This document shows, one piece after another, positions 2,256 to 49,949 of a stretch of DNA of 64,000 bases. The position numbers were made by a program, and so were the translations under genes. Position 1 is the first letter of the stretch; each line of letters begins with the position of its first letter. This DNA is from Candidatus Bathyarchaeia archaeon (GTDB lineage Archaea > Thermoproteota > Bathyarchaeia > 40CM-2-53-6). The notes beneath the pieces are model-generated. The model saw only the letters and a program-made list of their open reading frames with translations, searched no databases and was not told the origin of the DNA. The DNA is taken from positions 64,001-128,000 of the forward strand of contig JBEKFP010000001.1 in the NCBI GenBank assembly GCA_050013255.1. The letters run 5' to 3'.

Positions 2256-2537
2256 ATGGCCGCCATGGTTGATACGTTGACCGTTTCTATTGCCATTCTT
2301 GCAGTGGTCGTACTAGTTGGCATAATTTTCTGGTTTCAAAGGACTCGCCGAAACGAACTCGGCATACCTGTAATCGAACTTGAAAAGCTGGTCAAATGCA
2401 ATTCCTGCGGTTCTCAAATTCCGGAGGGTGCCCGGAAATGCGCTTTTTGTGGCGCCTGGCAACGCCCACTCGATTCCGGAGAACAAATAAAGGCCTCACA
2501 GCGAAATGGCACGAACGCCGCCGACGGATCACACTAG
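2256..2537 (+). CDS. Small membrane-anchored zinc-ribbon protein
   Basis: N-terminal hydrophobic helix, then CNSCG...CAFCG. Confidence 0.7.
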   Translation: MAAMVDTLTVSIAILAVVVLVGIIFWFQRTRRNELGIPVIELEKLVKCNSCGSQIPEGARKCAFCGAWQRPLDSGEQIKASQRNGTNAADGSH

Positions 2538-2672
2538 CCGCCGTATGCGCATTCTCGCAGACGACAGCTCAGTGGTGGAGCAGCGGACCCTTATTGGAAA
2601 GGGGCTGAAGCTGTTAAGCGGGCAGACGCAGCTACCCGTTGGTCGCAGGTTCGAGCCCTGCCGGCGGCGCCA
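2537..2672 (+). tRNA. tRNA-Asn(GTT) with three BHB introns (8/9: 2545-2565; 30/31: 2587-2609; 37/38: 2617-2633) and encoded CCA
   Basis: Removing the three inserts gives GCCGCCGTAGCTCAGTGGTGGAGCAGCGGGCTGTTAACCCGTTGGTCGCAGGTTCGAGCCCTGCCGGCGGCGCCA, a complete cloverleaf with G73; each insert forms a bulge-helix-bulge. Confidence 0.92.
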
Positions 2673-46964: not shown

Positions 46965-49949
46965 TTAACCTTTGGTTACTCCGATCGGGACGAGTCTGGC
47001 CACTTTGGTTGCTATGCCTAGTTGGTGGCTTACTTCTGCGACGCTGTCAACGTTCTTGTAGGCTTCTGGAGCTTCTTCGCTTACCGTCCCCATGTTCTCC
47101 GCTCGAATCATGATCCCCTTCTTTGAGAGAAGGTCTTCGACCGTCCGTGCTGGGTTCCGCCTCCTTGCAGCTGCTCGGCTCATGAACCGGCCAGCTCCGT
47201 GCGCCGTTGTTCCGAAGCTGAGTTCCATGGATTTGGGTGCCCCGATGAGAACCCAAGACGCTGTGCCCATACTCCCAGGGATCAGGACTGGTTGGCCAAT
47301 CTCCCTGTATTTAGCTGGGACGGCTGAATGACCGGGCGGAAAGGCTCGGGTTGCTCCCTTTCGGTGAACATAGACCTTCTTGGTCCCCCCATCGATTACA
47401 TGCTCCTCAATCTTCGCAATATTGTGGCAGACATCGTAGATCAAACCCATATCCAACTGGTCAGCCGACTTCCCAAAGGTCTTCTCGAAAGACTCTCGCG
47501 TCCAATGGGTTATCATCTGCCTATTCGACCATGCGAAGTTGGCCGCACATGACATGGCGCCGATGTAATCTTCAACCTCGTTACTCTTTGCGGGGGCGCA
47601 GGCCAATTGCCGGTCCGGTAACTTGATTCCATATTTCTGCACGGCACGTTCCATTACTCGCAGGTAGTCGCTGCACACTTGGTAGCCGAACCCCCTGCTC
47701 CCGGTATGGACTAAGACGAGGACTTGGCCTTCCTTCCGGATACCTAATTTATCGGCAACGGGAGCGTCGAAGATCTTATCCACTTTCTCAATCTCGAGGA
47801 AATGATTGCCGCTACCTAGGCTGCCAAGTTGCGGTGCACCGCGTTGCTTAGCAACCCCGGATACCTTGTCTGGGTTAGCGGTCTGCATGCACCCATTTTC
47901 TTCGCAATGTTTCTGGTCCTCAGCCCAACCATACCCATGGTCAACAGCCCACTCAACGCCCTCACCAGTTACCTTCTCCAAATCCCCCTGCGAAAGCCGC
48001 CCAACCTTCCCCCGACTCCCAAGCCCTGAGGGAATATTCACAAACAACGTATCCAGCAACTTCCCAAGAACCGGCCGAACATCAGCCTCAGTCAGATTTG
48101 TGCGAATCAACCGCACTCCACAGTTCGAAACAACCAATCCGTTGGCGATGAAATTGTGACTCCGATCGGCTACTGTGAAGTCGAACACTGATTCATTGAG
48201 TTCCATGGGCTCGATGGTCGCTATTACATCCCAAACGCTTCCGGACTTGCCAAGGCCCACCGTGGCTGCCTGAACATACGCCGCGAACGATGGAAAATCT
48301 TCTGGAATTCGCGGCGCACCTGCTCGTGGTGAATATATTGAACGCTCAATGAAACGTTCATTGACACCCGAACCACCAAGGTGATCGTAGATTGCTTTCG
48401 GTGCAGCTCCGAGGTTCCGCATCGCCACTGCGGAAACAGCAACTCGCATCCTGGCTAGCAGGGCCATTCGCTTGGTCTTGATGTAGTTTACAGCTAATGC
48501 TGCGAGGTAGCTCTTTCTACGATTGTACTCGAAGCCCACGGTTCCCCAGAACCTGATTAAGTTCTCAGGTAACTCTGAGACCTGGAGGCGGACACGCGTC
48601 GAAACAACTCCTGTGCGTGTCCGATTTGTGTCAAAGTCCACCGTGATTGGGTTGCACTTCACTCCCAGCTGATCAAGTAGTTTCTTGATTTGGCGCATCA
48701 TTATCATCCCACCAGAAAGGGCGCGCATATGCTTGCTTTGAGTCAACAACGGGGCCGCCAAAGTCTTTGAATGGCCCGCTACTGTTGCGGGTGTTGACAT
48801 TTCAGCACCGAAGAATGCTCCTAAGAACAGGCGCTTAATCCACAATGGGCACCTGAATAACCAAGTTGGCAGAGCGTAACCCTGTGTAGCCTTTGCGCCT
48901 CTCGGAACACCCATGGCAAACAATAGTGCAGCTAAGCTTCGTGAATGGACGTAGAATCCATGCTCAACACTCGCGAACCGCTTCGTCCCGTACCTTGAGG
49001 TGATCTTGGCCATTCTTTTTCTCGTGTAGACCTTCGTGGGTGAATAACCAAGTTCACGAACATCGCGGCGAATATCCTCCAGATCCTCGCGCTTCCCCCA
49101 GAACCATATGAAAGCACTCACGGGCGTGAAAATAAGCGACCCATCTCCAATTACGTAGCCGAAGATTTTCATTAGGTAAGGCAATTTCGGCGACATGGAT
49201 CGTAGCGGCAAGAGCCCTCTGGCTCGAAGCTCATTTGCGACCGCCGTATTGTTTGCTGGAATCTTTAGGCTCCTGATTTTCCGTTCGCTGACTATTGCAA
49301 AGTCTTCCGGCTCTTCGTAAGGTACGCCCTCGAAGCCGTAAACAGCGACTTTCTCCTCCGTGCGCAGCCGAGATACTTCGCGCATTCCGCTCGGAGTTAG
49401 GATTGGGTGGTCCCCGGTCGCAAGTATCGCGTAGCCGAGTTTCGTTCGAATTCGAAAGGCAACTTTGTTGTTAGGTTGCTTGAGGAACGCAATGATCTTT
49501 GCCTTCTCAAGCCCACTCTGCTTAGATGTTCGGACAGCCACACGTGACCAAGACGACTCAAGTTCGCGAATCGGCACCCGGTATCCAAGTTCGGTTAAAA
49601 CAAGAGCATCGCCGGTCAGGCAGTTTATATCATATCCTATACCGCCGGGGCTTACGACGCCTTCGTCGTAGTCGCTTGCTGCGACTCCGCCTATTGGGAA
49701 GCCGTATCCTTCGTGGCCGTCGGGCATGGTTATTGACCAGTTGTAGAGGCCGGGTAGGGTGGCGACGTTTGCGCATTGCTGCAGGGTAGCGTCGGTCCGC
49801 ATTTTTTCGATTAGCGCATCGTCAGCGTAGATTCTGCCTGGGACGCGCATTCCGGGTTGTGCGTCTTTTGGAATCTCCCAGACGTATTTGTCAATGCGTT
49901 TTATCGGGATTTGCTGGGAGGTGTGGCCGTATGCTGAACCTTGGGACAT
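46965..49949 (-). CDS. rtcB: tRNA-splicing ligase RtcB with intein
   Basis: MPDGHEGYGFPIGGV, GYDIN|C, GSGNHFLE, HTGSRG, HRKGATRA, HGAGR, EEAPEAYK; ATG at 49949. Confidence 0.96.
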   Translation of the reverse strand: MSQGSAYGHTSQQIPIKRIDKYVWEIPKDAQPGMRVPGRIYADDALIEKMRTDATLQQCANVATLPGLYNWSITMPDGHEGYGFPIGGVAASDYDEGVVSPGGIGYDINCLTGDALVLTELGYRVPIRELESSWSRVAVRTSKQSGLEKAKIIAFLKQPNNKVAFRIRTKLGYAILATGDHPILTPSGMREVSRLRTEEKVAVYGFEGVPYEEPEDFAIVSERKIRSLKIPANNTAVANELRARGLLPLRSMSPKLPYLMKIFGYVIGDGSLIFTPVSAFIWFWGKREDLEDIRRDVRELGYSPTKVYTRKRMAKITSRYGTKRFASVEHGFYVHSRSLAALLFAMGVPRGAKATQGYALPTWLFRCPLWIKRLFLGAFFGAEMSTPATVAGHSKTLAAPLLTQSKHMRALSGGMIMMRQIKKLLDQLGVKCNPITVDFDTNRTRTGVVSTRVRLQVSELPENLIRFWGTVGFEYNRRKSYLAALAVNYIKTKRMALLARMRVAVSAVAMRNLGAAPKAIYDHLGGSGVNERFIERSIYSPRAGAPRIPEDFPSFAAYVQAATVGLGKSGSVWDVIATIEPMELNESVFDFTVADRSHNFIANGLVVSNCGVRLIRTNLTEADVRPVLGKLLDTLFVNIPSGLGSRGKVGRLSQGDLEKVTGEGVEWAVDHGYGWAEDQKHCEENGCMQTANPDKVSGVAKQRGAPQLGSLGSGNHFLEIEKVDKIFDAPVADKLGIRKEGQVLVLVHTGSRGFGYQVCSDYLRVMERAVQKYGIKLPDRQLACAPAKSNEVEDYIGAMSCAANFAWSNRQMITHWTRESFEKTFGKSADQLDMGLIYDVCHNIAKIEEHVIDGGTKKVYVHRKGATRAFPPGHSAVPAKYREIGQPVLIPGSMGTASWVLIGAPKSMELSFGTTAHGAGRFMSRAAARRRNPARTVEDLLSKKGIMIRAENMGTVSEEAPEAYKNVDSVAEVSHQLGIATKVARLVPIGVTKG
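48123..49622 (-). mobile_element. 500-aa intein with LAGLIDADG-type homing endonuclease
   Basis: Starts CLTGD, block B ATGDHPILT, GYVIGDG and LGAFFGAE, ends HNFIANGLVVSN before Cys+1. Confidence 0.93.

Follow-up and report, generated by a model that had tools for sequence, protein, structure and literature searches.

The prevailing view is that archaeal tRNAs tolerate introns wherever the cutting motif can form. To our knowledge, no clear account exists of how such a motif can arise when it has to dismantle both the acceptor stem and the D stem.

Genes with three introns have been described before, for example tRNA-Glu(UUC) of Pyrobaculum calidifontis and tRNA-Pro(UGG) of P. islandicum (PMC4390854, PMC4090602, PMC8450103). 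Multi-intron tRNAs, relaxed motifs, two-subunit endonucleases, and the sequential removal of introns are established for Thermoproteales, Thaumarchaeota, and recently also Asgard archaea (PMC4090602, PMC4390854, PMC8450103, PMC7714728, bioRxiv 10.64898/2026.10.13.758758), and introns that require ordered removal are an already known situation (tRNAscan-SE 2.0, PMC8450103). The intron sites given in the review by Yoshihisa are 20/21, 22/23, 25/26, 29/30, 30/31, 45/46, 53/54, 56/57, and 59/60, with 3/4 as an extreme case, and 8/9 is absent from them (PMC4090602). Judged against this review-level literature, the 8/9 site is likely to be rare.

Here, we describe a tRNA-Asn gene of a Candidatus Bathyarchaeia archaeon that carries three introns, one of them at site 8/9, and a second copy of its 5' acceptor strand in the leader. 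The three-intron gene itself is of a known type, and it is the conserved leader stand-in beside the 8/9 intron that forms the new part; we found no published description of such a leader copy of the acceptor strand.

A tRNA-Asn gene in four exons

The gene lies at positions 2537-2672 of the window, i.e., the whole stretch of 64,000 nucleotides that was analyzed, and direct reading of the sequence resolves it into four exons of a tRNA-Asn(GUU) and three inserts (Table 1). Excision of the inserts yields a 75-nt tRNA-Asn(GUU) with encoded CCA, and ARAGORN assigns the joined exons as tRNA-Asn(gtt) with four perfect stems, U8, U33, G73, and the encoded CCA: the canonical cloverleaf is restored once all three introns have been removed. 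The identity features of tRNA-Asn are all present in this product (anticodon GUU, discriminator G73, a standard cloverleaf, U8, U33, and T-loop UUCGA).

Table 1. Features of the tRNA-Asn(GUU) gene and its leader in the window.
Feature	Position	Strand	Remarks
TATA-like box (CAAATAAA), presumed tRNA promoter	2484-2491	+	Ends 25 nt before the leader copy; assigned from spacing
Leader stand-in, exact copy GCCGCCG of the 5' acceptor strand	2517-2523	+	Complementary to 2662-2668
Leader linker, 13 nt	2524-2536	+	3' end lengthens the outer helix of the first BHB via D-arm bases
Exon 1, G1-U8 (acceptor 5' strand and U8)	2537-2544	+	Direct reading, ARAGORN, BHB solver
Intron 1, site 8/9, 21 nt	2545-2565	+	Inner stem 2546-2549/2556-2559; H' GACG 2560-2563 pairs with C3-C6
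Exon 2, A9-G30 (D arm and anticodon-stem 5' strand to G30)	2566-2586	+	ARAGORN, BHB solver
Intron 2, site 30/31, 23 nt, strict hBHBh'	2587-2609	+	H 4/4 Watson-Crick, h 2 bp, h' 5 bp
Exon 3, G31-A37 including anticodon GUU	2610-2616	+	ARAGORN
Intron 3, canonical site 37/38, 17 nt, bulge-helix-loop	2617-2633	+	H CUGU/GCAG, 4/4 with one G.U
Exon 4, A38 to encoded CCA	2634-2672	+	Direct reading, ARAGORN
3' acceptor strand (in exon 4)	2662-2668	+	
G73 (in exon 4)	2669	+	
CCA (in exon 4)	2670-2672	+	

The initial annotation had expected standard tRNA finders to overlook this gene, and on the unspliced DNA no tRNA is indeed reported by ARAGORN run over the whole window or by Rfam at the gathering score. 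When run in E-value mode, the Rfam tRNA model scores 28.3 bits on 2557-2669 at a cut-off of 29, in an alignment that relies on the end of intron 1 as a false acceptor strand with two mismatches. We analyzed the gene with a solver that strips bulge-helix-bulge (BHB) candidates and then checks for a cloverleaf, accepting intron 3 only after intron 2 has been removed. Exactly one solution was found for the gene. This filter is lenient, with 3 of 60 composition shuffles also passing, and the case for the gene therefore rests on its conservation in relatives. The solver, ARAGORN, and the alignment of these relatives agree with the initial annotation on the gene, the insert positions 8/9, 30/31, and 37/38, and the helices, with all coordinates and motifs as proposed there. 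By sequence and comparison, 2537-2672 is a real and essential three-intron tRNA-Asn gene, and the same evidence establishes its three insert sites, their motifs, their conservation, the link between leader copy and intron, and the enzyme genes described below.

The host assembly comprises 2.46 Mb in 3 contigs with 50% G+C and is rated 100% complete. It had been asked whether this is the only Asn(GTT) gene of the genome, and no second tRNA-Asn gene was found in the assembly by a short-word BLAST of the mature sequence, nor any other GUU anticodon arm followed by a T arm. Standard tools thus missed the sole Asn tRNA of a 100%-complete assembly, so that the annotation of such lineages will report false tRNA gaps. 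A "tRNA-Asn(att)" that ARAGORN places at C1:733989-734145 is spurious and shows no tRNA features. Over the whole genome, the Rfam tRNA model gives 25 loci at E of 1 or less, of which 18 score above the cut-off, and many of these matches are 90-190 nt long; matches this few and this long indicate that interrupted tRNA genes are the rule in this genome, for which our incomplete survey located ~32 tRNA genes. A T-arm scan that required CCA recovered 30 tRNA 3' ends, all of them accordingly with CCA.

Both a candidate endonuclease for splicing at non-canonical sites and an RNA ligase are encoded in the genome, in the form of two EndA paralogues (190 and 187 aa) and RtcB, as is the archaeal RNase P RNA. 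The first EndA contains a catalytic-type motif, is closest to 3P1Z_B, 2CV8, 3AJV_B, and 2ZYZ_B, and lies nearest to the catalytic chains of crenarchaeal heterotetramers; the pair would form a two-subunit (alpha-beta) endonuclease. The RtcB gene (window 46968-49778, minus strand) is a single open frame of 1039 aa over which the Pfam RtcB model is split into two parts (profile 1-60 and 49-426) that are ~1.4 kb apart, and the unbroken frame makes an intein the probable identity of the additional part.

The gene and its leader are identical, base for base, on 10 metagenome contigs from separate samples that were retrieved via a neighboring zinc-ribbon ORF; all 10 represent DNA and carry the gene unspliced. 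A search for metagenome contigs with the MoeA neighbor found none. Spliced exon 1-2 or exon 2-3 junctions were not found in metagenome contigs, a result of little weight given that these are mostly DNA. The zinc-ribbon ORF itself (93 aa, window 2256-2537, plus strand) overlaps the TATA-like box and the leader copy of the tRNA gene, and its stop codon TAG at 2535-2537 reaches one base into that gene (+1 = 2537). Its Cys-rich part is kept upstream across the genus, and its tail is not in frame in every species.

Our motif rule, taken from the canonical intron, pairs 4 exon bases with 4 intron bases, the former ending 2 nt ahead of the 5' cut and the latter 2 nt ahead of the 3' cut, and has each strand followed by a 3-nt bulge. 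Intron 1 shows exactly this geometry, with bulges GUA and ACA (3 nt each) and inner stem UGCG/CGCA, but its central helix of C3-C6 against GACG comprises 3 pairs and one C5.A mismatch; all 4 bp are intact in 32 of 71 orthologues. Its outer helix joins (-1,G1,C2) to (G10,C11,U12), where -1 is A, and both flanking helices are at least 2 bp long (h 3 bp, with a class mode of 4, and h' 4 bp). The intron boundary could be shifted 1 nt downstream with the same product (A2545 = A2566). Intron 2, with H CAGC/GCUG and h' CCCUU/AAGGG, combines a 4-bp helix with two 3-nt bulges in a motif that is kept in all solved orthologues. Intron 3 has essentially no inner stem (h' at most 1 bp) and satisfies the relaxed BHB form; in relatives, it is either missing or just 11 nt long.

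BHB1 takes the 5' side of the D stem and BHB2 the 3' side, so that both can coexist, and BHB3 collides with BHB2 at G27, C28, C32, and U33. The clash between the 30/31 and 37/38 motifs had been recognized in the initial annotation at C32/U33, to which G27/C28 can be added, and had been taken to imply ordered splicing. Since the outer helix of the 37/38 motif grows from 1 bp in the precursor to 7 bp once intron 2 is absent, ordered splicing of introns 2 and 3 is plausible: the clash is real, while the order itself we only infer. A competition between the 8/9 motif and the acceptor stem had likewise been predicted correctly, and the central helix of this motif uses acceptor bases 3-6.

Co-occurrence of the 8/9 intron with an acceptor-strand copy in the leader

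Sampling 200 genomes of the class via the 3' end of the gene gave 102 non-redundant tRNA-Asn loci, and 71 of them have an insert at the same 8/9 site, though these loci are phylogenetically related and all such counts overstate independent events. The gene carries the 8/9 insert in all genomes examined of the same genus, family, and order, and judging from this comparison the insert is old. Its length ranges from 17 to 46 nt (mostly 21-29) over the 71 loci, and H' reads GACG in 38 loci, GGUG in 2, and GGCG, which makes the helix perfect, in 30. The 8/9 introns show 43 distinct inner stems, and the bulges are 3 nt long in all loci. In a MAFFT alignment of 69 sequences (61 distinct), the proposed 8/9 structure lets 88% of cells pair across the distinct sequences versus 26-42% in slid registers, and the covariation score of the motif was matched by 0 of 500 shuffles. 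All four pairs of the inner stem change on both sides through compensatory substitutions. For the outer helix, -1 pairs with U12 in 56 and -2 with C13 in 44 of the 61 distinct sequences, and the C.A mismatch of the central helix recurs in 36 of them, including that of this gene. The mature tRNA-Asn is almost invariant over the 102 loci, and its acceptor stem never varies.

Every parsed locus with the 8/9 intron also has the one at 30/31; the same three introns are found in 38 of them, 18 lack the intron at 37/38, and 11 have a fourth intron further downstream. In sister genera (L065-L075, L077, L079, L080, and L082), the inserts at 8/9, 30/31, and 37/38 are joined by a fourth one of 19-26 nt that lies between variable loop and T loop.

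The leader of the gene contains an exact copy of the 5' acceptor strand (Table 1), and C2516 just before it can additionally pair with G73. An element of this kind lies 5-24 nt upstream of +1 in 71/71 loci with the 8/9 insert, with an exact match in 65, and is found in 1/31 loci without the insert. In the six imperfect Asn copies, the seventh base is missing, and all six are preceded by GGC or GGU able to pair with G73-C75, an extension that is present in only 14 of the 65 exact copies. This extension follows the tRNA's 3' end rather than its 5' strand, which is what would be expected of an element that acts by pairing. At the genus level, the linker contains CACACUA, which can pair with A14-G19 in the predicted fold. 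The insert-free exception (L126, G095:C1:224583-224912) has GCCGCCG 28 nt upstream, which may have been left behind when the intron was lost or be fortuitous; both states occur in other genera of its family.

Of the 43 loci that have enough upstream sequence, 36 show a TATA-like box ending 22-28 nt before the copy, and in intron-less tRNA-Asn genes such a box is found 15-59 nt from +1. The spacing to the copy suggests that the transcript probably starts with the leader copy. We rejected the idea that this copy is the real exon on two grounds: it can be followed by any base (A, G, U, or C) and the second copy invariably by U8, and only the second copy has the inner stem next to it. A target-site duplication was rejected as well, given that the two copies flank the short variable linker and not the intron.

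The same arrangement is seen in other tRNA genes of this genome. A search for 7-mers repeated within 25 nt and with their complement downstream before NCCA produced ten matches, four of which are tRNA genes, i.e., Asn, Cys, Trp, and Glu(CUC), and each copy matches the acceptor strand of its own tRNA (GCCGCCG, GCCGGGG, GGGGCCG, and GCUCCGG). The first intron of these genes is at 8/9, 8/9, 10/11, and 10/11, respectively, and in each case this intron uses the 5' acceptor strand for its central helix; in tRNA-Trp and tRNA-Glu(CUC) (G000:C2:632656-632884; G000:C1:26410-26560, minus strand), the 10/11 central helix uses bases 5-8. None of the other 28 tRNA 3' ends from the T-arm scan has a copy of the 5' strand nearby. 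Among tRNA-Cys orthologues, the leader copy GCCGGGG accompanies the 8/9 intron at 23/23 loci (one with 6 of 7 bases) and is found at 0/7 loci without this intron. For tRNA-Asn and tRNA-Cys alike, the copy thus goes with introns whose central helix uses the 5' acceptor strand. Class-wide, the 8/9 intron and the leader copy occur together and are absent together, a clean natural experiment that points to a simple cis-acting helper.

The exact copy is not obligatory, however, because tRNA-Leu(GAG) has an 8/9 intron without it (G000:C1:1244030-1244171, L034). This 24-nt intron shows a perfect central helix and a 7-bp inner stem, and its leader has only the degenerate motif ACGGGUG; in orthologues, a motif ACGGGUG or GCGGGA with a partial match to the acceptor strand is found 20-30 nt upstream. 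Among the matches listed from a pattern scan of genome contigs for a leader copy together with its acceptor strand, a list filled up by GC-rich bacterial coding DNA, we also noticed two tRNA genes (CAU and GUG) of Desulfurococcales/Pyrodictiaceae MAGs with acceptor strand GCCGCCG (L188:3255-3385 and L219:2357-2465). Both have GCCGCCG 6-10 nt upstream, yet no 8/9 intron, and these copies may be coincidental in leaders so rich in G+C, or may indicate that copies of this kind are used more widely.

A possible strand swap and its alternatives

From sequence, we infer where the transcript starts, that the copy pairs, in which order the events occur, and that splicing takes place, as follows. Transcription from the TATA-like box would produce an RNA that starts at or within ~3 nt of the spare copy, and in this precursor the spare copy would occupy the real 3' acceptor strand by base pairing. 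Thus freed, the real 5' strand could pair with GACG of the intron and with G10-U12 to form the 8/9 BHB, in which the intron's H' (GGCG or GACG) would stand in for bases 67-70 of the 3' strand, and the 30/31 motif could form alongside. The two-subunit (alpha-beta) endonuclease would cut inside the 3-nt bulges and RtcB would ligate the exons. Loss of intron 2 would let the anticodon stem form and expose the 37/38 intron. Intron 1 would leave together with the surrogate strand, the real 5' strand would regain the 3' strand, and RNase P would remove the leader. The leader copy is thereby a likely answer to the competition between the 8/9 motif and the acceptor stem.

Folding computations are in line with the first part of this scheme. 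With the leader included, RNAfold pairs the copy with the 3' strand at P ~0.97 and forms the true acceptor stem at ~0.0005 (means of 23 orthologues), versus P 0.93 for the true acceptor stem without the leader; together with the GG(C/U) extensions of the imperfect copies, these predicted folds support a probable pairing of the copy with the 3' acceptor strand in the precursor. A nested structure of leader helix, BHB1, BHB2, and T arm has -34.9 kcal/mol versus -33.9 kcal/mol for the same RNA with the true acceptor stem and no BHB1. Forcing BHB1 costs 14.0 kcal/mol without and 8.1 kcal/mol with the leader. Scrambling the 7-nt copy alone barely alters this cost (8.6 versus 8.1 kcal/mol), which means that the linker accounts for most of the drop and that the energy argument rests on which strand holds the 3' end and not on this cost, which we do not count in favor of the copy.

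The nearly unchanged cost after scrambling would also fit a reading in which the introns are spliced but the copy acts otherwise, as a start-site or RNase P-related signal or as a decoy, with its link to the intron being indirect. We consider this the foremost alternative, though an unlikely one. The acceptor stem of tRNA-Asn is invariant, and the pairing of the copy is therefore beyond a covariation check within Asn; another role of the copy would also accommodate that tRNA-Leu(GAG) manages without an exact copy and that L126 and the two Desulfurococcales MAG genes have GCCGCCG upstream without an 8/9 intron. A general promoter signal is excluded, however, by the observation that the copy always matches the acceptor strand of its own tRNA, with four different sequences in one genome. 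The extension of the imperfect copies toward G73-C75, tracking the 3' end rather than the 5' strand, is a further point against any role other than pairing, as is the tight link to the intron across the class (71/71 versus 1/31 loci).

A second alternative concerns the first insert, which might not be cut by the endonuclease at all: it could adopt a shifted hairpin and be removed by another route, or the false acceptor strand GCAGACG could be used instead of the real one. In RNAfold, the BHB register is ~7 kcal/mol less favorable than the shifted hairpin, in which C6-U8 pair with ACG, and is never predicted (P ~0 whether or not the leader is included). The C.A mismatch of the central helix and the 28.3-bit Rfam alignment to 2557-2669 would fit such a view as well. 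In general, minimum-energy folding does not recover BHB motifs. Since even the perfect motif of intron 2 is not predicted here, we regard RNAfold pair probabilities as uninformative for BHBs. Only the BHB register positions both cuts such that U8 and A9 are kept, the helix with GGCG is perfect in 30 loci, and the bulges measure 3 nt in all loci, while the false acceptor strand has two mismatches, provides no U8, and is not conserved as a strand. Either version of this alternative is very improbable. That the locus is a decaying pseudogene, with Asn decoded by a tRNA that escaped our incomplete survey (~32 genes located, 25 Rfam matches), is hardly credible for a gene with four intact stems, exons nearly invariant class-wide, a conserved promoter, and identical copies on 10 contigs, in a 100%-complete assembly where no other GUU anticodon arm with a T arm was found.

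We therefore favor with good confidence the reading of this locus as the sole detectable functional tRNA-Asn(GUU), whose three-intron splicing would involve a leader stand-in and a strand swap. More generally, and with somewhat less assurance, we lean towards the view that 5'-proximal archaeal tRNA introns depend on a built-in RNA chaperone, in which a surrogate 5' strand starts the transcript, a surrogate 3' strand ends the intron, and both real acceptor strands are kept paired by these surrogates until the endonuclease has cut. If true, this strand swap would decide where 5'-proximal introns persist and would put splicing before RNase P cleavage.

Comparison with known systems

The multi-intron genes of Thermoproteales resemble this gene in that short BHB introns occupy canonical and non-canonical sites of one gene, a broad-specificity two-subunit endonuclease is involved, and neighboring motifs form one after the other. 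They belong to hyperthermophilic crenarchaea, however, whereas the gene described here comes from another lineage and adds site 8/9 and a matching leader element. Another study of multi-intron tRNAs likewise reported many introns per gene that are missed by annotation, often lie in or near the D arm, and are found at BHB motifs. In that study, unlike here, the few introns of the acceptor stem or its junction were pooled as "other," and the word "leader" is absent from its text.

A parallel to the conflict with the acceptor stem is the 3/4 intron of Thermoproteales (Sugahara 2008, cited in PMC4090602), whose motif, as far as it is portrayed there, also needs acceptor bases and precludes the acceptor stem in the precursor. 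It occupies another site, and what the review literature relates of those genes (PMC4090602) includes no mention of a leader stand-in.

The nearest known idea to the leader copy is the paired flanking sequences of split tRNAs, as found in Nanoarchaeum equitans and Caldivirga maquilingensis (PMC4033280, PMC3218864), where sequences outside the tRNA likewise pair so that a BHB can form. In split tRNAs, however, the flanks pair with each other and join two transcripts, whereas here the copy of an exon strand would pair with the opposite exon strand within a single transcript. Unlike the flanks of split tRNAs, the stand-in copy would also probably be removed by RNase P and not by the endonuclease.
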